Origin: Nitrospirota bacterium
Lineage (GTDB): Bacteria > Nitrospirota > Thermodesulfovibrionia > Thermodesulfovibrionales > JdFR-88
Reading direction: 5' to 3'
NCBI GenBank assembly: GCA_021789215.1
Contig: JAJYJS010000003.1
Span: 49,828 to 113,827 of the forward strand
Length of the DNA: 64,000 nt
Shown here: in pieces, positions 2,271-50,794 of the stretch
How the letters are laid out: each line of letters starts with the position of its first letter
Numbering within the stretch: the stretch's first letter is position 1
Made by a program: the position numbers and the translations under genes
Notes under the pieces: model-generated
Told to the model about the DNA's origin: nothing
Seen by the model: only the letters and a program-made list of their open reading frames with translations
Databases searched by the model: none

Positions 2271-2400
2271 GGTTTGTTATGATAAATGAGTTTAAAACCC
2301 TTAGTCAATGAGCCGGAAGAAGATTTTTTCCAGCTTGCACGCCCCTGATTGCCTGCCAACCGTTCAATACTTTTTAGTTTGCCGGATACATACATATGGT

Positions 2401-2430: not shown

Positions 2431-2487
2431 AGAAAACGGCCCGCGGCTTACCATGCCGTCCGGCAAAAAACAGGAGGTTTTTCGCTT

Positions 2488-31236: not shown

Positions 31237-32070
31237 TTATTGTCCTTCAAGTCTCCTGATGCGCTCTTCGATGGGCGGATGCGTGCTAAAGAGGTTCATG
31301 AGGCTCCGGCCCCTGAACGGGTTCACTATGAACATATGCGCGGTGGCCGCGTTGGCCTGCATGGGGATGGCCTTGGAGGCGTAGCCCAGCTTCCTGAGCG
31401 CGTTTGAGAGGTATCGGGGGTTGCCCGCCAGTTCCGCCCCGCTGGAGTCCGCCGAATACTCCCTGGCCCTGGATATGGCCATCTGAATGATCAGCGCTAT
31501 TATCGGCGCGAGTATCATCATGAGGATGGCGCCAACCGGGTTGCCCTCGTCGCTGTCCCTCCTGCCCCCGCCGAATATCATCGCCCACTGGGCCATGTTC
31601 GCCAGATAGCTTATGGCCCCGGCGATAACGGCCGCCACGGAGCTTATGAGTATATCCCTGTGCTTTACATGGGAAAGTTCATGGCCGATAACGCCCGAAA
31701 GCTCTTCCGGGGTAAGCAGCCTCATTATGCCCTGGGTCACGGCCACGGCCGCGTGCCGGGGGTTCCTGCCCGTCGCGAACGCATTGGGCTGTTCCTGCGG
31801 GATTATGTAAACCCTGGGCATGGGCAGCCCGGCCTTCATCGACAGCCTCCTGACTATCCCGTACAGCTCCGGCGCCTCCGCCTCCGTAACCTCCTGGGCT
31901 CTGTACATCCTGAGCACCATCTTGTCGCTGAACCAGTAAGCGAACGCGTTCATGCCGAGCGCTATTATGAAGGCGAACGTCATCCCCTGCTGGCCGCCAA
32001 GCATCCTCCCCACAAAAACAAAGAACGCGGTCAGCCCCGCAAGGAGAACCGCGGTTTTAAATCCGTTCAT
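31237..32070 (-). CDS. htpX: Zinc metalloprotease HtpX (M48)
   Basis: 277-aa ORF with TM helices, the [10 protein letters not shown] zinc motif and a C-terminal [10 protein letters not shown]. Confidence 0.9.
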
Positions 32071-32165: not shown

Positions 32166-32519
32166 TCAAGACACGCCCGAGAGTATTTTCTCCAGTTCCT
32201 CGAGCCTGAAGGGCTTTCTGAGGACCATTATGCCCTCGCCCTTGTATTTTTCGGCCAGTTCCTGCGTAACGTAGGCCGAGCAAATCACCACTTTTGGGAC
32301 CTTGCGGTCAGTGATTTCACCCAATCTGCTTATCAAGGTGGAGCCATCTTCCTCAGGCATTCTCAGGTCAGTGAACATTAAGTCGAACTCCCCGCCGCCC
32401 AGCGCGGAGAGCGCTTCCTTACCGCTCGAAACAGATATTACCTTATGTCCCCAGCGCGTCAGGGCCCTCTCAAGAAACCATCTTACGAGCTGCTCGTCAT
32501 CGACGATAAGGATATTCAT
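32166..32519 (-). CDS. Single-domain response regulator (CheY-like receiver)
   Basis: MNILIVDDEQLV...FDLMFTDLRMPEEDG...LRKPF, a receiver domain only. Confidence 0.85.
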   Translation of the reverse strand: MNILIVDDEQLVRWFLERALTRWGHKVISVSSGKEALSALGGGEFDLMFTDLRMPEEDGSTLISRLGEITDRKVPKVVICSAYVTQELAEKYKGEGIMVLRKPFRLEELEKILSGVS

Positions 32520-32564
32520 GGCATCCCCCTCGGCAATTCTAAAGCAAAAAACATGCCAATAAGA

Positions 32565-33959
32565 CTAGGCCTCTTTTTCGGGCAGGAAGCCGAACTTCAG
32601 CATCCTGTACCGGAGGGTGTCCCTGGTAAGATTGAGCAGCCTGGCCGCCTTGGTCTGGTTGCCCTTGGTGTTGTCCAGCGCCTGTCTTATCAATTCCTTT
32701 TCGACCTCTTCTATGTCAAGGCCGCTTATGGGCAGTTTTATGTCCACGAGTTTCTGCCCGCCGAACTTGAGCTCCTTGTCGCAGAGCTCCATCGGCAGGT
32801 GCTCCGGGAGGATAAGCTCCTCGTTTTCCAGTATCATGGCCCTCTCTATCACGTTCTTTATCTCTCTTACGTTTCCAGGCCAGTGGTAATCCATGAAGAG
32901 CTTTTCGGTCTCCCTGGCGAGGCCCTTGACGCTTTTCCTGAACTCGCGGTTGAAGACGTCTATGAAATATTTGGCCAGCAGGAGGATATCTTCCTTTCTT
33001 TCCCTGAGCGGGGGGAGGCTTATGGGGATGACCTTGAGCCTGTAGTACAGGTCTTCCCTGAAATTGCTGTTTTTGACCTCCTCCTCAAGCACCTTGTTCG
33101 TGGCCGCCACTATGCGGAGGTCCACGTCTATGTCCTTTATGCCGCCCACCCTCTTGAAGGACTTGTTCTCGATCACCTTGAGCAGCTTGGCCTGGGTGCT
33201 CAGCTTCATGTCGGCTATTTCATCCAGGTATATGGTGCCGCTGTCGGCAAGCTCGAAGAGCCCCTTCTTCATGCTCTTTGCGTCCGTGAAGGCGCCTTTT
33301 TCGTACCCGAAAAGCTCGCTTTCTATCAGGGTTTCAGGCAGCGCCGTGCAGTTTATCTCTATGAAGGGCTTTTCAAGACGCGCGCTCTGGTAATGTATGA
33401 CCTTTGCCACCAGGTCCTTGCCGGTGCCGCTTTCGCCTTGCAGGAGGACCGTCGAGGCGTCGCTCCTGGCGACCTTTTCTATCAGCTCGAATATCTTCTT
33501 CATCGCCGGGGACTGGCCGATGATGCTGTCGAAGCCGTACTTGGAGCTGAGCTGGGAGCGGAACTGCGAGACCTCTTTTCTGAGGGAGCAGGTCTCAAGC
33601 GCCTTGTCGAGGATGATCTTGAGCTTGTCCATGTTGAAGGGCTTTTCCACGAAGTCGTAGGCGCCAAGCTTTATTGTCTTCACCGCGGTCTGGACGTCGC
33701 CGAAGGCCGTTATCATTATGACGATGGCGTCCTTGTTCATCTCCTTTATGCCTTCCAGCACGGTGATGCCGGAGATGTCGGGGAGGTGGATGTCCAGCAG
33801 GGTTATGTCGGGCGAGTCCTCCTTGAAGAAGGAAAGGCCCTCAAGCCCTTTTTCGGATGTGATGACGGAATACCCGTCCTTGGAGAGGTTCTGTTCGAGC
33901 GACCACCTGAGTAGCTTCTCATCGTCTATGACGAGTACTTTTGCCTTAGCCATGTTCAT
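32565..33959 (-). CDS. Sigma54-dependent response regulator (NtrC family)
   Basis: Receiver domain (VLVIDDE...LLDIHLPD), AAA+ domain with GESGTGKD and a GAFTDA loop (GAFTGA variant), and a C-terminal Fis-type HTH (KAARLLNLTRDTLRYRMLKFG). Confidence 0.9.
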   Translation of the reverse strand: MNMAKAKVLVIDDEKLLRWSLEQNLSKDGYSVITSEKGLEGLSFFKEDSPDITLLDIHLPDISGITVLEGIKEMNKDAIVIMITAFGDVQTAVKTIKLGAYDFVEKPFNMDKLKIILDKALETCSLRKEVSQFRSQLSSKYGFDSIIGQSPAMKKIFELIEKVARSDASTVLLQGESGTGKDLVAKVIHYQSARLEKPFIEINCTALPETLIESELFGYEKGAFTDAKSMKKGLFELADSGTIYLDEIADMKLSTQAKLLKVIENKSFKRVGGIKDIDVDLRIVAATNKVLEEEVKNSNFREDLYYRLKVIPISLPPLRERKEDILLLAKYFIDVFNREFRKSVKGLARETEKLFMDYHWPGNVREIKNVIERAMILENEELILPEHLPMELCDKELKFGGQKLVDIKLPISGLDIEEVEKELIRQALDNTKGNQTKAARLLNLTRDTLRYRMLKFGFLPEKEA

Positions 33960-35382
33960 TCAATAATGACTGATATGGAATTATAACACGAAAGGTGCAT
34001 CCCAAACCCGGCCGGTTGTCAACCTCTATGCTGCCCCCGTGCCGCTCCACTATGCCCTTGCTGATGGCAAGCCCGAGCCCCGTCCCGGAGTGCTTCGTCG
34101 TGAAGAACGGCTTGAAGATGTTATCGTACGCATCAGGCGAAATGCCCATGCCCGTGTCGGTCAGCGAGACCCTTACGCCGTAGTCGTCCGCATTGGCGTC
34201 TATGCTCAGGATGCCCCCGCCGGGCATGGAATGCAGGGCATTGAGCATTATGTTCAGAAAGACCTGCTGCATCTGTTCGGGGTCCACCTCCACAGGCACA
34301 AGGCTGTTTGCCGCGGGCATCCTTATCTCGACGCCCTGGACCTCCGCCTGCTTGCTTATAAGCCTGAGAGCGCGCTCCAGGACCGGGATGATGTCCGTTT
34401 TCACCAGCCTCAGCGCGGCCGGACGCGCGAAGGTGAGCAGGTTTCTTATGGACTGGTCAAGCCGGTCTATCTCTCTCAGTATCTCCTTTATTATTTCCCT
34501 TCTCGTGTCGTTCGGCGGGATGTCTTCCGCAAACACCTGTATGGCCCCGCTGATGCCGGCCAGCGGGTTTTTTATCTCGTGCGCCACGGCTGCGGCAAGC
34601 TCCCCCAGGGAGGCCATCTTCTCCATCTTCTTCACGGTATCCAGGTGACAGGTCTCCAGGTCCCTCCTTATCTCCTCGAAACGGGAAAAGGCCCTGTTCA
34701 GCCCGCCGGAGAGCGTCCTGAACTCTCCGGGGCCCTCATCCCTGAACCTTACGCTGAAGTCCCCGCTGGAGGCCCTGCCGGCCGCCTTCGAAAGGGACAG
34801 GAGGGGCCTCATTACAAACCGTCTGTAAAACATCCAGAACGGGACAAAAAGCAGCAGGAAGCTTGCGAAGAATGAAACGGCAAGGTTTGTCCTCAGGGCT
34901 GAGAGCCTGTTCAGGTTCTCCCTGCCGGACAGTCCGATATTAAGGACGGAGAGCGTCCCGTCCTCCCTGCCGTGGCACCTCTGGCAGGGCTTCCCGTTAT
35001 ACAGGGGCGTGAAAAGGGACACCGGCAGGCCGGTCCTGCGGCTGTAATAAAACCTCGTCTCATCGGGCGATACCTTTATGATGGAGTTTATTTCGGAAGG
35101 GTTGGCGGACGCCCTGATGATGCCGTCAGGGCCGATGAGCCTCATCGCGGAGACCTCGTCAGTCAGCTGGCTGGCTATGTAGCCGCCCGATTCGCCGCCC
35201 TTGCCTTCCAGCATGAGGCTGATGAGGCCGTTCTTGACTATCTCGGCGGTGAACTTCAGCCTGCCCGCGTTTTCCCTGGCCTGGTCCTCCTTGAGGACCA
35301 GGTACTGCCTGTAATGGACCGCTCCCAGGACTGCCAGGAGCACTCCGGCCAGGACAAGCGAATGCCTGAGTTGAAGGCCCAC
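33946..35382 (-). CDS. Sensor histidine kinase with periplasmic CXXCH (c-type heme) sensor domain
   Basis: TM1, an approximately 140-aa periplasmic domain containing PCQRCHG, TM2, a HAMP-like linker, an H-box (AVAHEIKNPL), then NIMLNALHSM, DTGMGI and GTGLGLAISKGIV. It overlaps the NtrC gene by 14 nt. Confidence 0.85.
   Translation of the reverse strand: MGLQLRHSLVLAGVLLAVLGAVHYRQYLVLKEDQARENAGRLKFTAEIVKNGLISLMLEGKGGESGGYIASQLTDEVSAMRLIGPDGIIRASANPSEINSIIKVSPDETRFYYSRRTGLPVSLFTPLYNGKPCQRCHGREDGTLSVLNIGLSGRENLNRLSALRTNLAVSFFASFLLLFVPFWMFYRRFVMRPLLSLSKAAGRASSGDFSVRFRDEGPGEFRTLSGGLNRAFSRFEEIRRDLETCHLDTVKKMEKMASLGELAAAVAHEIKNPLAGISGAIQVFAEDIPPNDTRREIIKEILREIDRLDQSIRNLLTFARPAALRLVKTDIIPVLERALRLISKQAEVQGVEIRMPAANSLVPVEVDPEQMQQVFLNIMLNALHSMPGGGILSIDANADDYGVRVSLTDTGMGISPDAYDNIFKPFFTTKHSGTGLGLAISKGIVERHGGSIEVDNRPGLGCTFRVIIPYQSLLNEHG
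34972..34986 (-). other. CXXCH heme c attachment motif (CQRCH) inside the kinase periplasmic domain
   Basis: The reverse complement of 34972-34986 is tgccagaggtgccac, which encodes C-Q-R-C-H. It lies between the two TM helices. Confidence 0.7.
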
Positions 35383-35401
35383 GGGGCCGCGCTCCTTCTT
35401 G

Positions 35402-36484
35402 CTATTGGCTTCCGTAAGAATGCAGGCCGCTCAGGAGCAGATTGACCCCCAGGTACGTGAATATGACCGCCACGAACCCGAACACGGCGACAACCGAGAT
35501 CTTGTGCCCCCTCCATCCCCTGAGAAGACGCGCGTGCAGATAGAACGCGTAAACGAACCACGTGATAAGGGACCAGGTCTCCTTGGGATCCCAGCTCCAG
35601 TAAACGCCCCACGCCTGGTCGGCCCAGATTGCGCCGAATATGAGCCCGCCCAGCGTGAATATCGGGAACCCGACCGCTATGCTCTTGTAGGTTATCTCGT
35701 CGAGCATCACGGGGGAGAGCTTGAACGTCTCGATTACGCCTTTCAGCCTGGAGCCGCTCAGCCACACGAGGAAAACAAGCAGCGCCGTCCCGGCGTAGCT
35801 CATCAACTGGACAAACCCTGAGCTGTTCCTGAACGTGCTCTTGAAGAGATAGCTCTTTATGAACGCGTCGGGCTTCATCCCGACCCCGTATCTAACCCAG
35901 TCTATACCCATGGCCAGGAGGACGGCCGCGAATATGCCAAGGGCCGCGGTCCAGAATATGTAGGAGCCTTCATTGCGCTTGTCCGTGGAGGATATCAGAT
36001 ACATGAGCGCCGTGCTGAAGGAAAGCGCGAACATCGAATACGAAATGAAGCTCATCATCACGTGCGCCAGCAGCCAGTTGCTCTGGAGCGCGGGCACCAG
36101 CGGCTGTATCCCCGTGGACATGCCCGAAAGGTTTATGAACGCGAGCGCCAGGACCGCTATGGGCGTCACGAACGCGCCGAAGGAGCGGTTCTTGTATTTG
36201 AACTCTATTATGAGATAGCCCAATATCAGGCACCAGACAAAAAATATCAGGGATTCGTAAAGGTTGGTGAGCGGGACCGAACGCAGGATCCCCATCCCCG
36301 AAAGCTGATAAAATTCCTTCCACCGGAGCAGTATCGCCACCGTCTGGGAGGCAAAGCCGAATATCGTGATGCCCGTCGCGGACAGCCCAATGCCGTTTTT
36401 CCTGAAGGCGATATAGCTCACATAAGCCACCATCGCCAGGATATATGCCACAGTGGAAAGGCCGAAAAACAACGAGCTTTCCAT
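35402..36484 (-). CDS. ccsA: Cytochrome c biogenesis protein CcsA/ResC (System II heme handling)
   Basis: Polytopic protein with the WWD motif region WGVYWSWDPKETWSLITW. The TAATG junction overlaps the resB stop by 1 nt. Confidence 0.9.
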   Translation of the reverse strand: MESSLFFGLSTVAYILAMVAYVSYIAFRKNGIGLSATGITIFGFASQTVAILLRWKEFYQLSGMGILRSVPLTNLYESLIFFVWCLILGYLIIEFKYKNRSFGAFVTPIAVLALAFINLSGMSTGIQPLVPALQSNWLLAHVMMSFISYSMFALSFSTALMYLISSTDKRNEGSYIFWTAALGIFAAVLLAMGIDWVRYGVGMKPDAFIKSYLFKSTFRNSSGFVQLMSYAGTALLVFLVWLSGSRLKGVIETFKLSPVMLDEITYKSIAVGFPIFTLGGLIFGAIWADQAWGVYWSWDPKETWSLITWFVYAFYLHARLLRGWRGHKISVVAVFGFVAVIFTYLGVNLLLSGLHSYGSQ

Positions 36485-38052
36485 TATTTGCTTACCTCCT
36501 TGGTGAGAAGTGCGGTTTTTAGTTGTTCTATCTGCCTTTCGAAGGCGCTCTTGTTCTTGTTCGACGATGCCGCCACCGTGATCCTCGAACCGCCTTTATC
36601 CTGTGCCACCCTGACCCATATCTTCCTGTGGCTTACGAAAAACGCCACGAAAAGCCCGAGAGCAAGCGTTATGCACCCGAAATAGACCACCCATACCCCC
36701 GGGTCTTTCCTGGCCTGCACCCCCGTGTACCTGACGCCCCAGAAATCGGTGAGCCCCACTATGTTGCCGTCCGGGAGCTGCCAGGATTCCGGATACCGTT
36801 TGGCTATCCATTTGGTCGCCGTCCTGCCGTCGGGGAATTTCAGCGACACCTTTATGGCCGGGTTGGTCATCATCGGGGAGTAGGTGTACGGGTTTCCGGC
36901 CTCGTCAAAGTTGAGGGCCGGGTTGAACTCGTCAATCTTGCCGGTTATGCCCGTGCCGGGTATCGTGAAGCTGTCTCCCACCTTGAGCCGTTCAACATCG
37001 CTCGCGCCTTTTGCGGACTTCAGCTCAAGCACGGCCACGCCGCCCGAGGTGTCCGGCAGCACGCCGTAGCTGGACTGGTAAAAGGTGACGCCCTTGTATT
37101 TGAGCGGCTCGTTCACCTCTATCCATTTGCTGAGGACGGGCTTGCCGCCGTCAAAAACCGTGAGATGGCTCTTGTAGGCCTTGGGCATATCGCTGTTCGG
37201 ATAATAATCGACATCGAACTGGTCGCATCTGACGGCAAAGCCAAGCGGCACGATGCCCAGGTGCCTGAGCCTGCGGGTGAGCGCAGGCACGCTCACGCCA
37301 AGTTCCTTCGCAACCTGTCCCACGTCGCCCTGCGCGCTGTCCATGATGTCCAGCAGCTTGTTTCTCTCGTCGAATTCCGCCTGGGACGATATCCCCGTAT
37401 TGGCATATACAAGGTTGGTCGCAAGGCCCTCGGGTATGTTCACAAAACCCTTGAACCCGAAGAAGATGCCTATCACCGCGCCAAGCATGATTACCACTAT
37501 GCTGAAGTGGGTTATATACACGCCGAGCCTGCTCCAGGCGTGCTTCTGCGCGTAGAACTGGAAGCCCCCTTCCTCGTCCTCCCGTGCGGCGTTAAACCCG
37601 ATGCCCCTGATCGAGGACAGGACGCTTTCACGGAGCGCCGCGGGTTTTGCCTTTACCGCAAGCTCGGCCTTTATGGGCATGTTCCTGAACGCATCCGGCG
37701 GCAGGGGCCTTACCGGCGTCCTCACGACGCGCCAGATGCCGGGGAACCTGTCAATCGAGCAGATAATCAGGTTTACAGCGAAGAGGACCAGGAGGAGCAG
37801 GAACCACCACGAGCGGTACATGTTCATGAAGCCAAGCGTATCCAGGACCTTGTAGGCGGTGGGCGCAAGCCCGTCGCCAAAGATGCTCCCAAGCACCTTG
37901 AGGTTCTTTTCCGGGGCAGCCTGCTGCTCTACAACCGTGCCGACAATGGAGGTCAGGGCTATGAGCGAAAATACGATTATCGCCAGTTTGATGGAAGCAA
38001 GAAAAGACCATATCCTGTCGGACAGGCTTTTTTGCTTTTGCTGGTTCTCCAA
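36484..38052 (-). CDS. resB: Cytochrome c biogenesis protein ResB/CcsB (System II)
   Basis: 522-aa ORF with ResB topology: two N-terminal TM helices, a third TM helix, a large periplasmic domain and a C-terminal TM helix. It sits immediately upstream of ccsA. Confidence 0.85.
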   Translation of the reverse strand: MENQQKQKSLSDRIWSFLASIKLAIIVFSLIALTSIVGTVVEQQAAPEKNLKVLGSIFGDGLAPTAYKVLDTLGFMNMYRSWWFLLLLVLFAVNLIICSIDRFPGIWRVVRTPVRPLPPDAFRNMPIKAELAVKAKPAALRESVLSSIRGIGFNAAREDEEGGFQFYAQKHAWSRLGVYITHFSIVVIMLGAVIGIFFGFKGFVNIPEGLATNLVYANTGISSQAEFDERNKLLDIMDSAQGDVGQVAKELGVSVPALTRRLRHLGIVPLGFAVRCDQFDVDYYPNSDMPKAYKSHLTVFDGGKPVLSKWIEVNEPLKYKGVTFYQSSYGVLPDTSGGVAVLELKSAKGASDVERLKVGDSFTIPGTGITGKIDEFNPALNFDEAGNPYTYSPMMTNPAIKVSLKFPDGRTATKWIAKRYPESWQLPDGNIVGLTDFWGVRYTGVQARKDPGVWVVYFGCITLALGLFVAFFVSHRKIWVRVAQDKGGSRITVAASSNKNKSAFERQIEQLKTALLTKEVSK

Positions 38053-38130
38053 AATGCACTCCTTTCGGGCTGAAAAAACTCCCCTCCGAAACCAATAATT
38101 ATGATAATATTTTTATTTTCCAAATAGCAA

Positions 38131-41012: not shown

Positions 41013-43802
41013 CTAGTCCAGGAGCTCCCTTATCTTTCCGGCGAGCGCGGCGGGCATTATGGGCTTGTTTAAAAAAGCCGTGCCCGGTTCAATTGCGCCC
41101 TCAAGCAGTATCGCCCCATCGGCGTACCCGGACATGAAGATGACCTTCATGCCGGGCCTCTTTTCCTTTATGCTTTTTGCCAGCTGCCTGCCGTTCATGC
41201 CGGGCATTACAATGTCGGTGAGGAGGAGGTCTATGCAACCCTTGTGGGAACCTGATATGTTCAACGCCTCCTCGCTGCCTGCCGCCTCAAGGACATTATA
41301 GCCAAGCGGCCTCAGCAGCTCCCCCATAAGCTCGCGTATCGAGGGCTCGTCCTCGGCCACTAAAATGGTCTCGGTCCCGCCGGGAAGTGCAAGCTGCGGT
41401 TTCTGCGGGGCGTTTTCGATATTGAGGTGCGACACGGGCAGGTATATCTTGAACGTGGTCCCCTTGCCGGGTTCGCTGTAAACGTATATATAGCCGTTAT
41501 GCTGTTTTACAATCCCGTAAACTGTGGCAAGTCCGAGCCCGGTCCCCTTGCCCAGCTCCTTTGTCGTGAAGAAAGGCTCGAATATCCTCCCGCGGACCTC
41601 GGGGCTCATGCCCTCGCCCGTGTCGGTGATGGAGAGCATCACGTACTTGCCCGGTTTCGGGATTCCGTTGTGCCTCTGCGCGTAATGGACGTCCATCTCC
41701 ACGTCGGCGGTCTCGATGACCAGTTTCCCGCCGGAGGGCATCGCGTCCCTGGCGTTTACCGCGATGTTCATGAGTATCTGCTCAACCTGGACGGGGTCCG
41801 CCGTGACGTTCTCCACGGGAGAGCCCGTGTTCAGTTCGAGTTTTATGTCCTCGCCTATTATGCGGGTGAGCATCTTGCCCATGTTTTCTATGACGGTGTT
41901 GAGGTTTATGGTCTTCATCTCAAGCACCTGCTTGCGGCTGAAGGCCAGGAGCTGTTTCGTAAGCAGGGCGGCCCTTTCTCCGGCTTCCTTTATTATCGTC
42001 ACCTTTTCCAGCATCGGGTGGCCCTGGGGCAGGTTCATCATGACAAGCTCGCTGTAGCCCAGTATCGCGCAGAGTATGTTGTTGAAGTCGTGCGCTATGC
42101 CGCCGACCAGCCTCCCTACGGACTCCATTTTCTGCGACTGGATGAGCTGGTTCTGGAGGTTCTGCTGCTCCTGCTCGAATTTCTTCCGCGCCGTCAGGTC
42201 CCTGACAACATGGACAATGCCCAGCAGGTTGTTGTTCCTGTCGAACCTGGGGAGGGCCTTTATTTCGAGGTGTTTCCCGAGGGAGGGCTCGTAAATCTCA
42301 ACCGTTTCAGGCCCCCCGGACATAATCGCCTTATGGTTGGGGCACTCGGATATGGGGGCGTTTGTGCCATGGAAAAGCTCATGGCACTTGTATTTTGTGA
42401 TCTCTTCCAGGCTCTTGCCGAGCAGTTCCCCGGCGGCCCTGTTGGCCCGCACAACCCGGAAGTTCAGGTCGTTTATGGTTATGGCCTCGTTTATCGAGTT
42501 GAACGAATCCTCCCATTCCTGCTTGGCCTGGACAAGCAGGTCCTGCATCTTCCTCATGCCGGTGATGTTCATTACCATGCCGTTTAGTATCTCGCCGTCC
42601 AGCGCGGCATAAAGAAGGGCATAAACCGTCTTGCCGGACTTTGAAACAAGCTCTATCTCCAGGTTTTCGATCTTGCCGTCCCTGAGCAGGCCCTTTATCA
42701 TCTCCGACCTCTTGACGGGGTCTTTGTAAAAGCTCTGGACGCTCCTGGCAAGGACCTCTTCGACCGAATGTTCGAGCATACCCGCCATAGCCCTGTTGGC
42801 ATAGAGGAAATCCCCTTCGACCGTTGTCCTGTAAACGCCCACGAGGGAGTTGTCAACCAGGTCCCGGTATTTCTTCTCGGACTGCCTGAGGGCCTCTTCA
42901 GTATTTTTACGGTCCGTGATGTCCCGCACTATCTCTATTCCCGCCATTATCCGGCCCGAACGGTCTTTAAGCGGCGAGGCGGTTGTCTCGAATTTCCTCA
43001 CGCCCCTGCTGGTGACAGCCACCCTTTCGGCCTGGTGGATGCCCCCGTCTTTAAGGGACATCTCAACCGGACAGCCGGGGCAGACACTGTTTCTATGCTG
43101 ATATGCCCTGTAGCAGTACTCTCCGGCATGGTCGCCAATGCGGCTTTTATGTATCTGGTTCTGGAACAATATCTTGAATTCCGTATCCTGAATGCTGAGC
43201 CCGTCGCCCAGGGCCGCCAGTATCGAATCGGACCTTGACCTTTCCTGCTCAACCCGCGATATCGCCGCCCGGAGGGCCTCTTCTATCTCTTTGTACCGGG
43301 TAATGTCCCGCACCATCTCGATCGCGGCGATTATACCCCCGGCGGCGTCCCTTATCGGGGAGGCTATGACCTCTATGTAGACAGTTGACCCGTCTTTGTT
43401 CACCATGGTTTCGCGCCTGTGGGTGGCGCCGTCAGCAAAGACAAGCGGCAGAAGGCAGCCTTCGCACACATTTTCCCTCTGCTGGTAAGCCCTGTAGCAG
43501 TGCTCGCCTATGTGGCTGCCGTTTATGTTTTTGTGGGATTGGTTCTGGTAGAGGATGTGGAAATCCCTGTCCTGCACGGTTATGCCGTCGGCCACGGCGG
43601 CAAAGACGGCCTCAAGCAGGCCTTTTTCCTCGTCCAGTTCCTTGCGCGGGGCCTCAACACGGGCCTGAGGGCCGGTTTCACCATCCGCGGGACTTTTTCT
43701 TTCAAGCTCCGCTATCCGGCGCTTCAGGGCCTCCAGCTCGCCTATTAATTGTTCTCTGGACTTGTCCTTGTATTCCATGCCCTGTAAAAAGCAAAAACCC
43801 AT
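41013..43802 (-). CDS. Multi-PAS hybrid sensor histidine kinase with receiver domain
   Basis: 929-aa ORF with a coiled-coil N-terminus and four or more PAS-like modules. It has an H-box ([14 protein letters not shown]), then NIAVNARDAM, DTGEGM, GTGLGLATVYGIV and a C-terminal receiver (ILVAEDE...LLLTDIVMPGMNG). Confidence 0.85.
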   Translation of the reverse strand: MGFCFLQGMEYKDKSREQLIGELEALKRRIAELERKSPADGETGPQARVEAPRKELDEEKGLLEAVFAAVADGITVQDRDFHILYQNQSHKNINGSHIGEHCYRAYQQRENVCEGCLLPLVFADGATHRRETMVNKDGSTVYIEVIASPIRDAAGGIIAAIEMVRDITRYKEIEEALRAAISRVEQERSRSDSILAALGDGLSIQDTEFKILFQNQIHKSRIGDHAGEYCYRAYQHRNSVCPGCPVEMSLKDGGIHQAERVAVTSRGVRKFETTASPLKDRSGRIMAGIEIVRDITDRKNTEEALRQSEKKYRDLVDNSLVGVYRTTVEGDFLYANRAMAGMLEHSVEEVLARSVQSFYKDPVKRSEMIKGLLRDGKIENLEIELVSKSGKTVYALLYAALDGEILNGMVMNITGMRKMQDLLVQAKQEWEDSFNSINEAITINDLNFRVVRANRAAGELLGKSLEEITKYKCHELFHGTNAPISECPNHKAIMSGGPETVEIYEPSLGKHLEIKALPRFDRNNNLLGIVHVVRDLTARKKFEQEQQNLQNQLIQSQKMESVGRLVGGIAHDFNNILCAILGYSELVMMNLPQGHPMLEKVTIIKEAGERAALLTKQLLAFSRKQVLEMKTINLNTVIENMGKMLTRIIGEDIKLELNTGSPVENVTADPVQVEQILMNIAVNARDAMPSGGKLVIETADVEMDVHYAQRHNGIPKPGKYVMLSITDTGEGMSPEVRGRIFEPFFTTKELGKGTGLGLATVYGIVKQHNGYIYVYSEPGKGTTFKIYLPVSHLNIENAPQKPQLALPGGTETILVAEDEPSIRELMGELLRPLGYNVLEAAGSEEALNISGSHKGCIDLLLTDIVMPGMNGRQLAKSIKEKRPGMKVIFMSGYADGAILLEGAIEPGTAFLNKPIMPAALAGKIRELLD

Positions 43803-45747: not shown

Positions 45748-46746
45748 ATGTTCAGAAGATCCTCTTTATTTTTCTTTTTTTGCATGATCATTGCGGCCTT
45801 GGCGCTGGTTTCCTGCTCGCCGCCCCCCGTGGAGAAGCCCCCGGACCTCTGCTGGCCTTTCCCTCCGCAAAAACCGAGGATAAAGTTCGTTGACCTCGTA
45901 ATCGGCAGCCAGGACGCCACGGGCATAAGGGAGGGCAAGTTCAGCCGGATATTCTTTGGCGACGAGGGCGACATAAGGTTCTCCAAACCGGCCTTTGTGG
46001 CGTACAAGGACGGGGCAATGTATGTGACCGACATCAGGTCCCTGCACATCTTCGACTTCAAAAGGAAAAAATACATCGCGGCGGGAACGGACGTCCTGAT
46101 AACGCCGACCGGCGTGGCTGCGAATAACGAGGGGCAGGTGTTTGTAGGGGACTCTTCAAGAAAGGTTGTTTATATATTCAGCAGGCATGGCAGGCTGCTG
46201 GCCTCATTCGGAAGGTTCCAGTCCCCGTCGGGGATCGCGGTGGACGAAGCGAGACAGCACCTGATTGTGGCGGACGCAAAGGCGGACGACATCCAGGTCT
46301 TTGATTTCAAGGGCAACCTGCTGTTCAAATTCGGCAAGCGCGGGAAGGAAAAAGGCGAATTCAACATGCCCTACGGGGTGGCTGTGGACTCCAAAGGCAA
46401 TATCTGCGTCGTGGATTCCGGCAATTTCCGGGTCCAGATATTCGACAGCACAGGCAAGTTCATAAGCACGTTCGGCCATGTCGGCATAAACCCCGGCACA
46501 TTCGCCAGGCCCAAGGGTATCGCCCTGGATTCCGAGGGCCATATATACGTAGTCGATTCGGCCTTCGGCAATTTCCAGATATTTGACGAGCAGGGCAGGG
46601 TTTACCTTGTCGTAGGCTCCAACGGGTATGATGCCGGGCAGTTCCAGCTCCCCTTCGGCATCGCCATAAACTCCAGCGACATGATCTTCGTCGTTGACCA
46701 GGTGAACCGCAGGATCCAGGAGTTTCAATACCTCAAAGGGCACTGA
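45748..46746 (+). CDS. NHL-repeat beta-propeller lipoprotein
   Basis: Lipobox LALVS-C. There are five to six repeats of the NHL pattern (e.g. PSGIAVDEARQHLIVADAKADDIQVFD, PYGVAVDSKGNICVVDSGNFRVQIFD, PKGIALDSEGHIYVVDSAFGNFQIFD). A TATAAT lies at 45721-45726 upstream. Confidence 0.8.
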   Translation: MFRRSSLFFFFCMIIAALALVSCSPPPVEKPPDLCWPFPPQKPRIKFVDLVIGSQDATGIREGKFSRIFFGDEGDIRFSKPAFVAYKDGAMYVTDIRSLHIFDFKRKKYIAAGTDVLITPTGVAANNEGQVFVGDSSRKVVYIFSRHGRLLASFGRFQSPSGIAVDEARQHLIVADAKADDIQVFDFKGNLLFKFGKRGKEKGEFNMPYGVAVDSKGNICVVDSGNFRVQIFDSTGKFISTFGHVGINPGTFARPKGIALDSEGHIYVVDSAFGNFQIFDEQGRVYLVVGSNGYDAGQFQLPFGIAINSSDMIFVVDQVNRRIQEFQYLKGH

Positions 46747-46758
46747 AGCCCAAAGACT

Positions 46759-46787
46759 TTGACTTGTCTTGCCTTTATACCTACAAT
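46759..46787 (+). promoter_or_regulatory. Sigma70-type promoter of the tetraheme cytochrome gene
   Basis: TTGACT (46759-46764), a 17-nt spacer and TACAAT (46782-46787). An AAGGAGG RBS lies about 8 nt before the ATG at 46843. Confidence 0.5.
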
Positions 46788-46842
46788 TTGAGTATATTTT
46801 CCTTCCAGTATCAAAAAAAACCGAAAAAGGAGGGTTTTCCGC

Positions 46843-47421
46843 ATGAAAGCCGCAAAAAAGTTTTTTTTGCTCGCCGCTTTTTTCCTCATGATGCCGGTCG
46901 TGGCCTATGGCGCCGGCGCGCATGACGCCCTTAAGTGCACCGGGTGCCACTCGATGCACGACGCAAAGGGCGACGTCATTTTCGCTGTAAAGCCAAATAC
47001 GGGCACCAACCCGGACACCAAACAGCCTTATGAAGGTGTGACATCCCTTTGCCTTGGCTGCCATGAAACATCCGAGCACGGCGGTTTCGGCATCCTGCCC
47101 ATCTCCGCCCACAAGAGCCATCCTTTCGGCGTGGTCCCTAACCCGAGGATAGCCAAGGTGCCAGCCGAGCTGCTCAGGAACGGCAGGCTCGAATGCGTAA
47201 GCTGCCACGAGCCTCACCCGTCCAACAGCAATTACAAATATCTCCGCGTGGACACCAAAAAGCTGGGCATGGAGACCTTCTGCGCCGTCTGCCATCCCGA
47301 CAGGACGGACGCCTCCACAAAGGACGTAAAAATATTCGGCTTCGACAAGGGAGAGCAGGGGCCCGCGCAGGGAGCGGCACCAAAGCCCAAAGCCGCCCCC
47401 AAAGCAAAAACAACCAAATAG
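46843..47421 (+). CDS. Tetraheme cytochrome c with Lys/Pro/Ala-rich C-terminal tail
   Basis: Signal peptide (..VVAYG/AGA) and 4 CXXCH motifs (CTGCH, CLGCH, CVSCH, CAVCH). The C-terminal tail is GPAQGAAPKPKAAPKAKTTK. Confidence 0.85.
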   Translation: MKAAKKFFLLAAFFLMMPVVAYGAGAHDALKCTGCHSMHDAKGDVIFAVKPNTGTNPDTKQPYEGVTSLCLGCHETSEHGGFGILPISAHKSHPFGVVPNPRIAKVPAELLRNGRLECVSCHEPHPSNSNYKYLRVDTKKLGMETFCAVCHPDRTDASTKDVKIFGFDKGEQGPAQGAAPKPKAAPKAKTTK

Positions 47422-47449
47422 CTGATTCAAGAATAAAATATTAAAAAAC

Positions 47450-47481
47450 CCCTTCCCGAATCGGGAAGGGGTTTTTTTTCT
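47450..47481 (+). terminator. Intrinsic terminator after the tetraheme gene
   Basis: CCCCTTCCCGaatCGGGAAGGGG followed by a T9 run. Confidence 0.75.
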
Positions 47482-47583
47482 TTACTGCCCGGGACCGGGC
47501 AACTCCATCCCTCTGGACAGCGTTCAGGAAAGGAATGGAAAAATGCTGGCTGAAATGGTATATAATAGTAGCAATTTTTACTC

Positions 47584-50028
47584 ATGGATAAATTCATGAA
47601 GCACGCTTGCATGGTTGTCCTTGCGGCCGTCCTCCTGCTGGGGGCGGCGGGTATTTCTCGGGCGGAAGACGTAGATTGCCTGAGCTGCCACAAGGACATG
47701 GCCACGGGGAAGGACGTGCACCCCGCCGTATCCATGGGATGCACATCCTGCCACACCGGCGTGGACGCGACCCAGTTCCCGCACAAGTTCCAGGGCGACA
47801 AAGGTCTTTCAGCCGAGCCGCCGGATCTCTGCTTCGGCTGCCATGACAAGTCCAAGTTCACAGGCAAGGACGTTCACGCCCCCGTAAAAATGGGCATGTG
47901 CACGGCCTGCCATAACCCGCACAGGTCTGACAACAGAAAACTCCTTGTCTCGCTTCCACCGGACCTCTGCTTCGGCTGCCACAACAAGGAAAAGCTCACG
48001 GGCAAGCATATGGTGCACCCCCCGGTGGCCCAGGGGATGTGCACAAGCTGCCACAACCCCCATGCCTCCAATAACCCGAAGCTCCTCCTGGCGGAACCCC
48101 CGGACCTCTGCTTCAACTGCCACGACAAGGCGAAATTCAGCAAAAAAGACGTCCATCCGCCTGTTGCGGCGGGTATGTGCACAAGCTGCCACACCCCCCA
48201 TACAAGCGATAATAAGAGATTGCTGCTTGCGGAGCCGCCAAAGCTCTGCTTTACATGCCATGACGAGAAGAATTTTTCCGGCAAGGCCCATCAGCATCCG
48301 CCTGTTGCGGCGGGCATGTGCACCTCCTGCCATAACCCGCATTCAAGCGATAACGATAAGCTCCTGGCCGAGGCACCCCCGGCCCTGTGTTTCAACTGCC
48401 ATGATTCGAGCAAGTTCACCAAGGGCAAGAGCGTCCATCCGCCTGTTGCCGCCGGGATGTGCACAAACTGCCACGAGCCGCACCAGTCCGGACAGGACAA
48501 ACTCCTGAAGGCGGAGCCGCCGGAGCTCTGCTGGAACTGCCACGATAAAAACAGCCTAATGGCTGGCAAATTCCCGCACCCTCCGTTCGAGGCCGGGATG
48601 TGCCTGTCGTGCCACCAGCCGCACCGGTCGGATTCCGGAAAGCTGCTCGTCAAAGAGCCGCCGGAGCTGTGTTACGACTGCCACGACAAGTCCATGATGA
48701 AGGGCAAGGACCTTCACCCGCCCGTTGCCGCCGGGATGTGCACAAGCTGCCACAGCCCCCATGCGGGGAAGGCCCCCAAGGCGCTCCTTGAGGAGCCTCC
48801 GGCCCTCTGCTTTGGCTGCCATGACAAGGCCCAATTCTCGAAAAAGGACGTACATGCTCCCGTTGCCGCCGGGATGTGCACGAAATGCCACTTCCCGCAT
48901 GCGGGGGACTCAGACAAGCTGCTCAGGGCGGAGCCGCCAAAGCTCTGCTTCACCTGCCACGACAAAAACAAGTTTTCGGGCAAAAAGGATATTCACCCCC
49001 CGGTTGAGGCCGGGATGTGCACGACCTGCCATAACCCGCATTCAAGCGATACAAACAGGCTGCTGGCAAGCAATACGCCGGACCTCTGCTTCAATTGCCA
49101 CGACAAGAGCAAATTCACGATCGGCAATGCCGCGGCCAACGGGCCTTCCATTCATCCGCCCGTTGCCGCAGGGCTCTGCACCGGCTGCCACCAGCCGCAC
49201 CAGTCCGATACGGAAAAGCTGCTGAGGGCAGAGCCCCCGGACCTCTGCTTCAGATGCCATGACAAGAACATCATTATGGGCGGCAAGCACAAGCACCCGC
49301 CGGTCGAGGCCGGGATGTGCCTTTCCTGCCATCAGCCGCACAAGTCTGATGTCGCCAGAAAGCTCCTGGTGAAGAACCCTCCGGAGCTTTGTCTGGACTG
49401 CCATGACAAGGCGCTTGTTTCCGGCAAGAAGGACGTGCACCCGCCGGTTGCCGCGGGTCTTTGCACCTCCTGCCATAACCCGCACTCTTCGGCTTATCCC
49501 AAAATGCTGGTGCGGGATGTGCCCGAGCTGTGCTTTAAATGCCATGAAAAGGGCAAATTCACGGACATGAGGAGGATACACGGCCCGGCCAAGATAGGCA
49601 TGTGCCTTTTCTGCCACCAGCCGCACCAGTCGGAAAACAAGGGGCTCCTTCAAAAACCTGTGCCAGCGCTGTGCTTTACCTGCCACAGGCAGTCGCAGTT
49701 CACGCCGAGCCACCCGCATCCGCCGGTGCAGCAGGGCAAGTGCCTTGAGTGCCACGTGAAGCACTCCTCAAGGTATGCCTTCCTGTTGCAGAGGCCTGGA
49801 AACGAGACCTGCCGGAAATGCCACGCCGATATCTTCAACGGCCCCCACGCCGTTATGGTCATCGGCACAGGCCACCCGCTGAGCGGGCCGCGCGATCCCA
49901 GGAGACCGAACAGGCGGTTTGGATGCGCCAGCTGCCATAACCCGCACGGCTCCGAGAGCATGAAGATATTCAGGTACAAGGTCAAAAAAGACCCGTATGA
50001 GCTGTGCATCAACTGCCATCCAAAATAG
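47584..50028 (+). CDS. 33-heme (33 x CXXCH) multiheme cytochrome c composed of tandem doubled-CXXCH modules
   Basis: 814-aa ORF with a signal peptide (..GISRA/ED). I counted 33 CXXCH motifs by hand. There are 14 tandem 46-47-aa units between a 2-heme N-cap and a 3-heme C-cap. A TATAAT-like box at 47560-47565 lies upstream. Confidence 0.9.
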   Translation: MDKFMKHACMVVLAAVLLLGAAGISRAEDVDCLSCHKDMATGKDVHPAVSMGCTSCHTGVDATQFPHKFQGDKGLSAEPPDLCFGCHDKSKFTGKDVHAPVKMGMCTACHNPHRSDNRKLLVSLPPDLCFGCHNKEKLTGKHMVHPPVAQGMCTSCHNPHASNNPKLLLAEPPDLCFNCHDKAKFSKKDVHPPVAAGMCTSCHTPHTSDNKRLLLAEPPKLCFTCHDEKNFSGKAHQHPPVAAGMCTSCHNPHSSDNDKLLAEAPPALCFNCHDSSKFTKGKSVHPPVAAGMCTNCHEPHQSGQDKLLKAEPPELCWNCHDKNSLMAGKFPHPPFEAGMCLSCHQPHRSDSGKLLVKEPPELCYDCHDKSMMKGKDLHPPVAAGMCTSCHSPHAGKAPKALLEEPPALCFGCHDKAQFSKKDVHAPVAAGMCTKCHFPHAGDSDKLLRAEPPKLCFTCHDKNKFSGKKDIHPPVEAGMCTTCHNPHSSDTNRLLASNTPDLCFNCHDKSKFTIGNAAANGPSIHPPVAAGLCTGCHQPHQSDTEKLLRAEPPDLCFRCHDKNIIMGGKHKHPPVEAGMCLSCHQPHKSDVARKLLVKNPPELCLDCHDKALVSGKKDVHPPVAAGLCTSCHNPHSSAYPKMLVRDVPELCFKCHEKGKFTDMRRIHGPAKIGMCLFCHQPHQSENKGLLQKPVPALCFTCHRQSQFTPSHPHPPVQQGKCLECHVKHSSRYAFLLQRPGNETCRKCHADIFNGPHAVMVIGTGHPLSGPRDPRRPNRRFGCASCHNPHGSESMKIFRYKVKKDPYELCINCHPK
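47815..49755 (+). repeat. Intragenic tandem repeat array (about 138-141-nt period, 14 units) encoding the doubled-CXXCH modules
   Basis: The 15-mer ccggacctctgcttc recurs exactly at 47959, 48100, 49078 and 49237, with one mismatch at 47821. It occurs again at 50291 and 50430 in the downstream paralogue. Confidence 0.85.
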
Positions 50029-50071
50029 ACTGGTCCACTTTTCAATGCAATTGCAAAAGGAGTTTTGAGAG

Positions 50072-50794
50072 ATGAGGATTTCAGCTGTTGTGGTCATTTT
50101 CATGACACTCTGCCTTGCGGGGGTCTCCCGCGCGGCGGAGGTCGACTGCGTTTCATGCCACAAGGATTTGACCGAGGGGAAGACCGTCCACCCGGCCGTG
50201 ATGATGGGTTGCGCCGTCTGCCACACAGGCGTGGACGCAACCAAGGTGCCCCACAAGTTCACCGGCAAGCTGGGTCTGGCCGCTGAGCCGCCGGACCTCT
50301 GCTTCAATTGCCATAAGCGCGAGGACTTTATCGCCGCTGACGTCCACCCTCCGGTGAGCATGGGCATGTGCACCTCCTGCCATAACCCCCACAGGTCAGA
50401 CCAGCCGAAACTCCTCATAGCGCCAATACCGGACCTCTGCTTCAACTGCCATGAAAAGCAGGAGTTCACTAAAAAAGACGTCCACGCGCCGGTCAAGGCC
50501 GGCCAATGCCTGAAATGCCATATGCCGCATGTCAGCCCGAATTCCAAGCTGCTCCAGAAAAAGGGCGTCTTCCTGTGCAGGCAATGTCATGCTAACATTG
50601 AGAGGCAGGTCCATGTTGTAGCGGGTTTCTCCTCCGCGGGCCATCCGCTCAAGGGCAAACAGGACCCCCTCAGGAAGGGCAAGCCTTTTGAATGCCTGAG
50701 TTGCCACGTGCCGCATTCCTCGGACTGGGGAAGGCTGTTCAGGTACAAGGCCAACGATGCATTCGGTTTGTGCAACTACTGTCATAAATTTTAG
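50072..50794 (+). CDS. Nonaheme cytochrome c, short paralogue of the 33-heme protein
   Basis: Signal peptide (..GVSRA/AE) and 9 CXXCH motifs. The N-cap and C-cap align with those of the 33-heme protein, with only 2 internal doubled units. An AAGGAG RBS is present, and the gene starts 43 nt after the upstream stop. Confidence 0.9.
   Translation: MRISAVVVIFMTLCLAGVSRAAEVDCVSCHKDLTEGKTVHPAVMMGCAVCHTGVDATKVPHKFTGKLGLAAEPPDLCFNCHKREDFIAADVHPPVSMGMCTSCHNPHRSDQPKLLIAPIPDLCFNCHEKQEFTKKDVHAPVKAGQCLKCHMPHVSPNSKLLQKKGVFLCRQCHANIERQVHVVAGFSSAGHPLKGKQDPLRKGKPFECLSCHVPHSSDWGRLFRYKANDAFGLCNYCHKF

Follow-up and report, generated by a model that had tools for sequence, protein, structure and literature searches.

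A conserved locus in Thermodesulfovibrionales that joins cytochrome c synthase genes to a predicted haem c sensor kinase

For bacteria that live by extracellular or multihaem electron transfer, c-type cytochromes are a heavy investment, and control of the maturation of these proteins is poorly understood beyond Bacillus ResDE. In a 64-kb stretch of a Nitrospirota genome (contig JAJYJS010000003.1, here called the window), the genes for a cytochrome c synthase run directly into genes for a sensor kinase and its partners, which raises the question of whether the kinase is itself a haem protein loaded by its neighbours, and what the arrangement is for. Our preferred answer, which we hold to be very probable, is that the locus is a conserved five-gene module of Nitrospirota of the Thermodesulfovibrionales type, in which a System II synthase is combined with an sCache_heme-type kinase, a sigma54 activator and a CheY-like receiver. 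The haem occupancy of the kinase, its signal, its phosphotransfer partners, its regulon and any feedback on maturation are matters that we infer.

Cluster layout and the cytochrome c synthase

The five genes lie on the minus strand in the order resB, ccsA, histidine kinase, sigma54-type activator and single-domain receiver (cheY). The first (resB/ccsB; 36484..38052) encodes a System II cytochrome c synthase subunit of 522 amino acids (PF05140, E 6e-98), and the second (ccsA, resC-type; 35402..36484) the haem-handling subunit of 360 amino acids (PF01578, E 1.7e-46), which scores 266.6 bits against TIGR03144 (cut-off 187.6) and has a WWD motif, WGVYWSWDPKETW, around residues 289-301. A ResB-family protein and a WWD-bearing CcsA are thus encoded together, as is characteristic of System II. 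We saw no sign that the pair is a specialised paralogue, and it is a reasonable inference that it matures the adjoining sensor.

The genes are closely packed: resB and ccsA overlap by 1 nt (36484), 19 nt separate ccsA from the kinase gene (35383-35401), the kinase and activator genes overlap by 14 nt (33946-33959), and 45 nt lie between the activator gene and cheY (32520-32564). The initial annotation had given this same order and these same distances, which agree exactly with the open reading frame list, and the families it had named for the five products are borne out by Pfam and TIGRFAM matches. The ccsA-kinase junction (35383..35401, minus strand) is too short to hold a promoter or terminator, and nothing but a Shine-Dalgarno sequence (AAGGAG, 8-9 nt 5′ of the GTG start) can be read in it, so co-transcription of the two genes is likely. 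In one related locus (L004), ccsA and the kinase gene overlap by 14 nt. Most likely, resB, ccsA, the kinase gene and the activator gene form one transcript from a sigma70-like promoter 5′ of resB, where a consensus scan finds a candidate, by consensus match only, in an AT-rich gap of 78 nt (TTGCTA-18 nt-TATCAT; 38101..38130, minus strand). The genes 5′ of resB encode a cupin and Adh proteins, and no thioredoxin-like gene is found there.

The classical precedent for such an arrangement, which the initial annotation did not mention, is the Bacillus subtilis resABCDE operon, in which the genes for the ResB/ResC cytochrome c synthase are followed by those for the ResD-ResE two-component system, which controls respiration; ResDE reportedly controls respiratory genes. 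In both loci, genes for System II maturation share an operon-like unit with a two-component system, but the window cluster lacks the thioredoxin-like resA gene, the kinase gene precedes that of the regulator, the regulator is of the NtrC/sigma54 type rather than the OmpR type, and there is an additional CheY. With no resA, a sigma54-type regulator and the kinase first, the cluster is not a resABCDE-type operon; it is an analogue in organisation and not a member. ResE is not known to be a c-type haem protein. The window sensor is predicted to be one, and so would be a substrate of the synthase encoded with it.

ResB orthologues from 11 related loci are 42-58% identical to the window protein. 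Within its large extracytoplasmic loop, just past TM3, the window ResB has an insertion of ∼45 residues (aa 221-265; 37258..37392, minus strand) that resembles a Fis-type HTH (HTH_8, 22.4 bits; cut-off 22). HTH_8 also matches the ResB orthologues of L007 (26.6 bits) and L012 (21.6 bits); L001, L004 and L012 have the insertion, which L016 and L017 lack. As a test of whether the insertion is a copy of the activator's HTH, BLASTP aligned it with precisely the HTH of the activator, but not significantly (E 0.49).

A predicted haem c domain in the sensor kinase

The kinase (478 amino acids; 33946..35382, minus strand) consists of TM1, a periplasmic Cache domain of the predicted haem-c type, TM2, HAMP, HisKA and HATPase_c, with His268 (nt 34579-34581) in HisKA. 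Two hydrophobic segments (residues 8-24 and ∼166-188), each bordered by positive residues on the cytoplasmic side, indicate that the sensor domain (aa 25-165; 34888..35310, minus strand) is extracytoplasmic and lies between two TM helices, as in the family discussed below. The full-length homologues of the kinase form 109 clusters, and those that carry organism names are mostly from Nitrospirae/Thermodesulfovibrionales. There is exactly one CXXCH in the protein: CQRCH at residues 133-137 (34972..34986, minus strand), ∼30 residues before TM2, which provides the predicted haem attachment site (C133 and C136) and proximal ligand (H137). The initial annotation had assigned the heptapeptide PCQRCHG to these same nucleotides; the motif is correct, but the coordinates are those of CQRCH, and the heptapeptide spans 34969-34989.

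The assignment of the domain to a family depends on its relatives. By itself, the window's sensor domain gave only a noise match to Pfam with E up to 10, reaching no threshold, and only noise against PDB sequences; a word-indexed homologue search found nothing with the domain alone and mostly short fragments with a profile. The family was recovered with an exhaustive HMMER search (phmmer), which yielded 51 representative relatives of the sensor domain; four proteins bear three tandem copies, each with its own CXXCH. We aligned the window domain with 40 relatives (alignment A1, 41 sequences). The A1 profile matches two solved haem-c domains of Geobacter sulfurreducens, PDB 3B42 (GSU0935; E 1.7e-13) and 3B47 (GSU0582; E 1.4e-10), and 40 of the 41 relatives match PF21563. 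Since the window's domain alone matches neither Pfam nor PDB, membership in the PF21563 type is drawn from the profile of the relatives. PF21563 is Mcp40H-20_sensor, the family that is also called ‘sCache_heme’ (PMC12889525). An enrichment of this family in Nitrospirota has been reported, as have its fusions to kinases, chemoreceptors and GGDEF/EAL outputs.

The predicted structure is consistent with this assignment. The AlphaFold (AF2) model of the sensor domain (pLDDT 94) has a single Cache/PAS-like fold with long helices at 3-58 and 153-189, and Foldseek matches it at probability 1.0 to the Cache domains of WalK, KinD and DctB and to 3B42. In the model, the CXXCH occupies a short helix (131-137) flanked by strands 120-128 and 143-151, and a short helix between two strands is where the motif is described for sCache_heme (PMC12889525).

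Exactly four columns are invariant in A1: M57, C133, C136 and H137. Met57 (35212..35214, minus strand), which is on the helical extension of TM1 and is a Met in 105 of the 110 rows of a wider alignment, is the predicted distal axial ligand. It aligns, through the A1 profile, with residue 26 of the 3B42 chain (Met60 of GSU0935), and C133, C136 and H137 align with Cys140, Cys143 and His144; these four residues of GSU0935 are its published haem ligands, with Met60 distal (PMC8396549). The CXXCH is no accident of this one sequence: beyond A1, it occupies an unchanged position in 107 of the 109 full-length homologue clusters (the two exceptions are N-terminally truncated fragments), in 108 of the 110 rows of the wider alignment, and in every one of the 51 phmmer relatives that covers the site.

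Thus, the periplasmic domain is predicted, almost certainly correctly, to carry a covalently bound c-type haem. The initial annotation had proposed a haem c sensor, and the proposal is upheld by the profile match to GSU0935 and GSU0582, the invariance of the CXXCH and Met, the conservation of the CXXCH among orthologues, and the Cache/PAS-like model. If the CXXCH were instead a disulfide or a metal (Zn/Fe) site in an ordinary ligand-binding Cache domain, the failure of the window protein to match any haem-domain model directly would be explained, and the haem is indeed a prediction. We consider this very improbable, because at the profile level the domain is homologous to two haem-c domains that were proven by crystallography, and because the His is invariantly paired with a distant Met, which such a site would not need. 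Moreover, the domain is periplasmic and is encoded beside haem-attachment genes, and the model, in which the CXXCH is on the short inter-strand helix, has no buried disulfide.

Of the haem-c families that the initial annotation had suggested for comparison, the Geobacter type (PF21563) fits and the Cys-ligated Tll0287/DUF3365 type does not. As in GSU0582 and GSU0935, there is a single periplasmic Cache/PAS-like domain between two TM helices, with one CXXCH on an inter-strand helix, a His as the proximal ligand and, on the N-terminal helix, a Met as the distal one, which are the features of sCache_heme. Unlike those proteins, the window protein has as its output a HAMP-HisKA-HATPase kinase that leads to a sigma54 activator rather than a chemoreceptor, its sequence alone has diverged too far for the Pfam model to match it, and its gene is fixed 3′ of resB-ccsA, an arrangement that the literature we found does not report for the Geobacter proteins. 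Tll0287/DUF3365 and the Pseudomonas Cache_heme-HAMP receptors belong to the same superfamily and have the CXXCH in the same insertion (PMC12889525), but the distal ligand here is Met, not Cys, and no Ser/Thr kinase partner is encoded nearby. The window protein has no match to PF11845 (DUF3365), which 11 of the 41 relatives match weakly; the A1 profile reaches PDB 5B82 only at E 0.41; and A1 has no conserved Cys besides those of the CXXCH, with Met at the distal position where Tll0287 has its Cys ligand.

Conservation of the linkage

A search with an alignment of seven sensor sequences found the sensor gene directly 3′ of ccsA in 12 further distinct loci from metagenomes of Nitrospirota (Thermodesulfovibrionales). 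The resB-ccsA-sensor order is present in L001, L002, L004-L008, L012/13, L016, L017 and L020; in L015 and L019 the sequence ends within ccsA, and only the ccsA-sensor adjacency is visible. The flanks vary, with ParB upstream in L017, DUF922 upstream in L020, and patatin and flavodoxin downstream in L019. L008 retains resB, ccsA and the haem sensor but no longer has a kinase core, an activator or cheY; the remaining protein (sensor-TM-HAMP-like, 318 amino acids, no kinase) resembles the CHH architecture (10.64898/2026.05.25.727664). The coupling of the sensor to the maturation genes, on which the initial annotation had remarked, is thus conserved at loci with differing surroundings.

This linkage can be read in more than one way. 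The surrounding genes, from adh-adh-cupin on one side to epimerase-aminotransferase on the other, are arranged alike in many of these loci, so gene order in the lineage is generally stable, and, because a large share of the synteny is found in a single lineage that conserves these flanks too, part of the linkage could be inherited gene order and not the product of selection. The locus might then be a housekeeping neighbourhood, in which a general synthase shares a syntenic block with a two-component system that senses redox or NO and has an unrelated regulon. We think this unlikely but well worth weighing. The core linkage outlasts changes on both sides (L017, L019, L020) and the loss of the output (L008); a single transcript is favoured by the short junction of 19 nt and by the gene overlap in L004; and the sensor cannot become functional without a cytochrome c synthase.

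The same linkage might point to a closer relationship, in which the kinase, as a substrate of the synthase, would signal differently in its apo and holo forms, and would tune maturation or cytochrome genes to the haem supply or to CcsBA activity. This is a stronger form of the feedback idea in the initial annotation. It would fit the persistence of the sensor gene 3′ of ccsA even where output or flanks have changed, and also the pattern of divergence. The sensor domains are 24-40% identical, compared to 55-76% for CcsA and 65-87% for the activator; the sensor domain thus diverges faster than either protein, as judged from sequence identity, while its haem ligands stay invariant. The reading would also fit the position, beside multihaem cytochrome genes, of family members that do not adjoin ccs genes (L009, L011, L022). 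Nevertheless, we regard this reading as improbable. Adjacency may merely secure co-expression, and what the characterised relatives detect is redox potential or NO/CO rather than the loading of haem (PMC8396549, PMC12889525).

The preferred reading, a conserved module with a haem-c kinase, has a partial parallel in Wolinella succinogenes, which has dedicated CcsBA-type haem lyases, NrfI and CcsA1, that are encoded beside special substrates. There too a System II synthase gene adjoins the gene of a haem-c protein. The Wolinella lyases serve unusual motifs (CXXCK, CX15CH), whereas the motif here is the canonical CXXCH. Our literature search, which had most subscription journals outside its scope, found no description of the ccsA/resB-kinase-sigma54 linkage. 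Each of the two parts of the locus is of a known kind; what appears to be undescribed so far is that they are firmly linked in this lineage.

Proposed outputs of the kinase and their possible meaning

The activator (464 amino acids; 32565..33959, minus strand) is an NtrC-type sigma54 enhancer-binding response regulator, with a receiver (D54; PF00072, Response_reg, E 4e-27), a sigma54-interaction AAA+ domain (PF00158, Sigma54_activat, E 3e-69) and a Fis-type HTH (PF02954, HTH_8, E 1.6e-15). Its sigma54-contact motif is GAFTDA (aa 222-227) rather than the canonical GAFTGA. A pattern search found GAFTDA kept in eight orthologous loci (L004-L007, L011, L016, L019 and L022); the distant L009 activator has GAFTGA. 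The CheY-like receiver (117 amino acids; 32166..32519, minus strand) has Response_reg as its sole domain (PF00072, E 6e-21), with DD7-8, D51 and K101, and its orthologue follows the activator gene in L001, L005, L006, L007, L012, L016, L019 and L020.

The 45-nt gap between these two genes contains a predicted sigma54-type -24/-12 element, TGGCATgttttTTGCT (32543..32558, minus strand), with one mismatch to TGGCAC-N5-TTGCW, 23 nt before the cheY ATG. Six aligned loci (that of the window and five related ones) all have the -24 G and the -12 TTGC, and three of the six read AG rather than GG at -25/-24; the element is absent in L012, L019 and L020. Over the whole window, the -24/-12 consensus is matched no more often than in shuffled sequence, which, like the GAFTDA variant and the uneven presence of the element, weighs against the preferred reading.

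The initial annotation had suggested as targets the giant cytochromes 10 kb away, a description that is roughly right: three multihaem open reading frames lie on the plus strand at 46.8-50.8 kb, with four (46792-47418), 33 (47584-50028) and nine (50072-50794) CXXCH motifs. It had also proposed a search for sigma54 promoters upstream of cytochrome genes. In the 64-kb window we found no convincing -24/-12 promoter before these genes or before resB, and the sole good one precedes cheY. The matches in front of resB and the cytochrome genes are weak, agreeing at eight of the 11 specified positions, as at 47536-47551, 33 nt before the 33-haem gene; they carry no weight, because there are ∼60 such matches in the window. 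These results argue against control of maturation or cytochrome genes by an apo/holo signal, as does the sigma70-like candidate promoter of resB. What favours a housekeeping neighbourhood is that the sole good promoter of the sigma54 type is directed towards cheY and htpX; unrelated regulons of this kind could include envelope or membrane-protein quality control via htpX, or the downstream lipid and cell-surface genes.

If the locus is the conserved module that we favour, the resB and ccsA products would export haem and attach it to periplasmic CXXCH motifs. In the kinase, His137 would be the proximal ligand and Met57 an exchangeable distal ligand. On the model of the Geobacter domains, a change in the redox state of the haem, or its binding of NO or CO, may release or re-bind Met57, and the resulting movement of the TM1 helix would be passed through TM2 and HAMP to the kinase core (His268). 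The kinase would then phosphorylate the sigma54 activator and probably the CheY-like receiver too, which may serve as a further output or as a sink for phosphate. The activator would switch on -24/-12 promoters, of which the one visible candidate would drive cheY, possibly together with htpX. Because a single transcript is proposed, the sensor would always be made with the machinery that loads its haem.

If the link serves co-expression alone, what we describe amounts to a neat annotation of a sensor type that was already known. The locus adds a sigma54 output to those of the sCache_heme family, which was defined recently, with ∼110 homologous kinases for comparison, and a predicted haem-c sensor kinase directly after its presumed synthase is a testable candidate for periplasmic redox/NO sensing in Nitrospirota. 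The same operon is a possible candidate for the sensing of maturation capacity. Since the kinase would itself be haem-loaded by a co-transcribed CcsBA, its apo/holo ratio would report the periplasmic capacity for haem attachment, with redox state as a second signal, and the sigma54 output would match either cytochrome c production or cheY-htpX envelope quality control to that capacity. We give this idea only a small chance of being correct; if true, it would mean that these anaerobes, rich in multihaem cytochromes, have a built-in checkpoint for cytochrome c biogenesis.

Gene order and identity of the sensor domain

The module consists of five minus-strand genes in succession (32166-38052), located from the ORF list of the window and identified with Pfam and NCBIfam models. 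These are resB (36484-38052; 522 aa; PF05140, E 6e-98), ccsA (35402-36484; 360 aa; PF01578, and TIGR03144 at 266.6 bits against a cut-off of 187.6), a histidine kinase gene (33946-35382; 478 aa; HAMP, HisKA and HATPase_c), a gene for a sigma54-type response regulator, the activator (32565-33959; 464 aa; Response_reg, Sigma54_activat, AAA_lid_14 and HTH_8), and cheY, a single receiver (32166-32519; 117 aa; Response_reg alone). resB overlaps ccsA by 1 nt, 19 nt separate ccsA from the kinase gene, the kinase gene overlaps the activator gene by 14 nt, and a further 45 nt lie before cheY; the gene order and every junction length in the initial annotation were exact. That annotation had also assigned one CXXCH to the kinase, and indeed we find a single CQRCH (residues 133-137, nt 34972-34986), located between hydrophobic helices at aa 8-24 and aa 166-188.

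Kinase residues 1-195, used as a lone query, had no match in Pfam, PDB sequences or a word-indexed protein search. HMMER, run exhaustively against 1.84 billion representative proteins, yielded 51 relatives of the sensor domain, and a CXXCH is present at the equivalent position in all of those whose sequence spans the site. M57, C133, C136 and H137 are the only invariant columns in a 41-sequence alignment with a mean column identity of 32%. The profile of these 41 sequences matches two crystallised periplasmic haem-c sensor domains of Geobacter sulfurreducens in the PDB, GSU0935 (3B42, E 1.7e-13) and GSU0582 (3B47, E 1.4e-10), and 40 of the 41 sequences match PF21563, the family built on 3B42 and 3B47. 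In the profile-PDB alignment, the kinase CXXCH corresponds to Cys140, Cys143 and His144 of GSU0935, and M57 corresponds to residue 26 of the 3B42 chain, which is Met60 of GSU0935 because the Cys positions fix a 34-residue offset. His144 and Met60 are the axial haem ligands of GSU0935; on reduction, a switch from high spin to low spin goes with Met60 binding, Met60 is displaced by CO and NO, and the midpoint potentials of the two Geobacter domains are -156 and -251 mV (PMC8396549). Judged by this profile, the sensor domain is of the Met-ligated Geobacter type and belongs to a known family, sCache_heme. The Cys-ligated Tll0287 type was considered and rejected, as 5B82 reached only E 0.41 with the profile and the ligand position holds Met.

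The AlphaFold2 model of the sensor, built with the alignment (pLDDT 94, pTM 0.83), has a long helix out of TM1, then a five-stranded sheet, and is closed by TM2; the CXXCH lies on a short helix (131-137) between strands 120-128 and 143-151. The same architecture is described for sCache_heme in a 2026 preprint (PMC12889525), which groups the GSU0582/0935 domains with that of Tll0287 in this family and reports its enrichment in Nitrospirota and its fusion to kinases, chemoreceptors and cyclic-di-GMP enzymes. Foldseek matched the Cache domains of WalK, KinD and DctB as well as 3B42, all at probability 1.0. The prediction of a haem-c sensor in the initial annotation is upheld: of the 109 clusters of full-length homologues, 107 keep the CXXCH and the other two are fragments truncated at the N terminus, and neither a buried disulfide nor a non-haem fold was found. 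The clusters with a named organism are mostly assigned to Nitrospirae, Nitrospiraceae, Thermodesulfovibrionales or Thermodesulfovibrio.

Four relatives from the HMMER search (P0027, P0028, P0033 and P0038; 715-828 aa) have three tandem haem sensor domains each, with a separate CXXCH in every copy at a spacing of ~130 residues, and are predicted to be triple-haem periplasmic sensors.

Linkage to resB-ccsA and divergence across loci

Related loci (contigs with L numbers) were drawn from one genome scan, one metagenome scan and twelve exact-protein look-ups. Based on tblastn with the window proteins, resB-ccsA-sensor is found in L001, L002, L004-L008, L012/L013, L016, L017 and L020; in L015 and L019, the contig ends inside ccsA and only the ccsA-sensor adjacency is visible. 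Several linked loci share a wider block, with two Zn-dehydrogenase genes and a cupin gene upstream and cheY, htpX, epimerase and aminotransferase genes downstream, and lineage inheritance therefore accounts for part of the linkage pattern. The resB-ccsA-sensor core survives despite changes at both flanks. ParB lies upstream of the core in L017, and L020 has DUF922 and other genes on that side; patatin and flavodoxin genes are downstream in L019, and htpX is not present in L012, L016 or L020.

L008, a metagenome contig, has no kinase core, activator or cheY. Directly after ccsA it encodes a 318-aa protein (9962-10918, plus strand) with the arrangement TM-haem sensor (CQKCH)-TM and a HAMP/coiled-coil tail, an architecture like that of the Cache_heme-HAMP receptors presented in a preprint from 2026, and htpX is next. 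The relatives P0016 (324 aa) and P0017 (318 aa) are apparently of the same type. Distant family members in L009, L011 and L022 have no ccs neighbours and have multihaem cytochrome genes alongside, with the cytochrome gene in L011 overlapping the start of the kinase gene; L018 and L021 had neither association.

Identity to the window proteins, taken over loci with complete coverage of the protein and without the L015 fragment, is 65-87% for the activator, 55-76% for CcsA, 42-58% for ResB, 34-63% for the kinase core and 24-40% for the sensor domain. On these identities, no part of the module evolves faster than the sensor domain, and its predicted haem ligands are nonetheless fixed.

Transcription signals and neighbouring features

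The 19-nt gap between ccsA and the kinase gene contains only AAGGAG, 8-9 nt ahead of the GTG start, and in L004 these two genes share a 14-nt overlap. The AT-rich 78-nt gap upstream of resB contains a sigma70-like TTGCTA-18-TATCAT. A sigma54-type candidate, TGGCATgttttTTGCT, lies in the 45-nt gap before cheY, 23 nt from the ATG and with one mismatch to the consensus; our scan found no comparable element upstream of resB. The number of window-wide matches with at most one mismatch (2, compared to 2.1 expected in shuffled sequence) is not above chance, and the case for the cheY element is therefore made by where it lies and by its conservation. Alignment of the gap from six loci shows an invariant -24 G and an invariant -12 TTGC, the latter at 32543-32546 in the window, with variable sequence around them and with AG in place of GG in three of the six; the element was not found in L012, L019 or L020. 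A perfect consensus match, TGGCACcaggcTTGCA, occurs at 2850-2865 (plus strand), within overlapping long ORFs (2308-3597, plus; 2374-3585, minus).

The htpX gene, encoding an M48 membrane protease (31237-32070, minus strand), begins 95 nt after cheY. No terminator-like site was found in this gap and htpX is syntenic in L001, L005, L007 and L008, and htpX may thus be transcribed from the sigma54-like promoter before cheY. The E. coli htpX gene is controlled by the Cpx envelope-stress system.

The initial annotation had suggested the nearby large cytochromes as possible targets of the circuit. This was not borne out by the promoter scan: upstream of the cytochrome cluster at 46.8-50.8 kb there is no -24/-12 promoter comparable to the cheY element, and before the 33-haem gene there is only a weak -24/-12-like match (47536-47551). 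An NHL-repeat beta-propeller lipoprotein gene precedes the three multihaem cytochrome genes (45748-50794 in all, plus strand), which encode 4 CXXCH (46792-47418), 33 CXXCH with 16 Paired_CXXCH_1 repeats (47584-50028) and 9 CXXCH (50072-50794); the cluster looks like an extracellular electron-transfer module. The gene for a cytoplasmic hybrid kinase of 929 aa (41013-43802, minus strand) lies immediately upstream of the adh-adh-cupin-resB block. This kinase has several PAS domains, HisKA, HATPase_c and a receiver at its C terminus, and could feed a further signal into the neighbourhood.

The sigma54-contact loop of the activator is GAFTDA, not GAFTGA (aa 222-227, nt 33279-33296, minus strand). 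The eight orthologous activators that a pattern search picked up in related loci all have GAFTDA, and the distant homologue in L009 has GAFTGA. ResB contains an insertion of ~45 residues (aa 221-265, nt 37258-37392, minus strand) right after TM3, where the extracytoplasmic domain is expected. Scored against the Fis-type HTH model HTH_8 (cut-off 22), it reaches 22.4 bits in the window, 26.6 in L007 and 21.6 in L012, and would place a DNA-binding-type motif on the predicted periplasmic side. The insertion occurs in L001, L004 and L012 and is missing from L016 and L017. Its similarity to the HTH of the adjacent activator is not significant (E 0.49).

Relation to resABCDE and proposed signalling

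In Bacillus, ResDE is a regulator of respiration, and there too ResB and ResC are followed by this two-component regulator. The resABCDE operon is listed as 'redox sensing and cytochrome biogenesis' (PMC2614493). The window module differs from it in regulator type, in gene order, in having no resA and in the predicted haem-c type of its sensor. The sensor family is already known and the organisation parallels resABCDE, but the resB-ccsA-haem sensor-sigma54 module itself appears undescribed, as we found no description of it in the searchable literature, of which coverage is incomplete.

The initial annotation had raised the idea of a feedback circuit. We consider it improbable that cytochrome production is adjusted through the apo or holo status of the kinase as a readout of maturation capacity. 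The best-supported reading is a redox-, NO- or CO-responsive haem-c kinase that acts on a sigma54 activator; of this, the anatomy, the profile-based family membership, the conserved ligands, the fold and the synteny are demonstrated here, and we infer haem loading, stimulus, phosphotransfer and regulon. A periplasmic His/Met c-haem would sense redox state or the binding of NO or CO, and the state of the haem would govern Met57 ligation, which would act on kinase activity by way of the TM1 helix and the HAMP domain. From the kinase, the signal would be relayed to the sigma54 activator and the small receiver, and the sensor would be co-transcribed with the very System II synthase that it requires.
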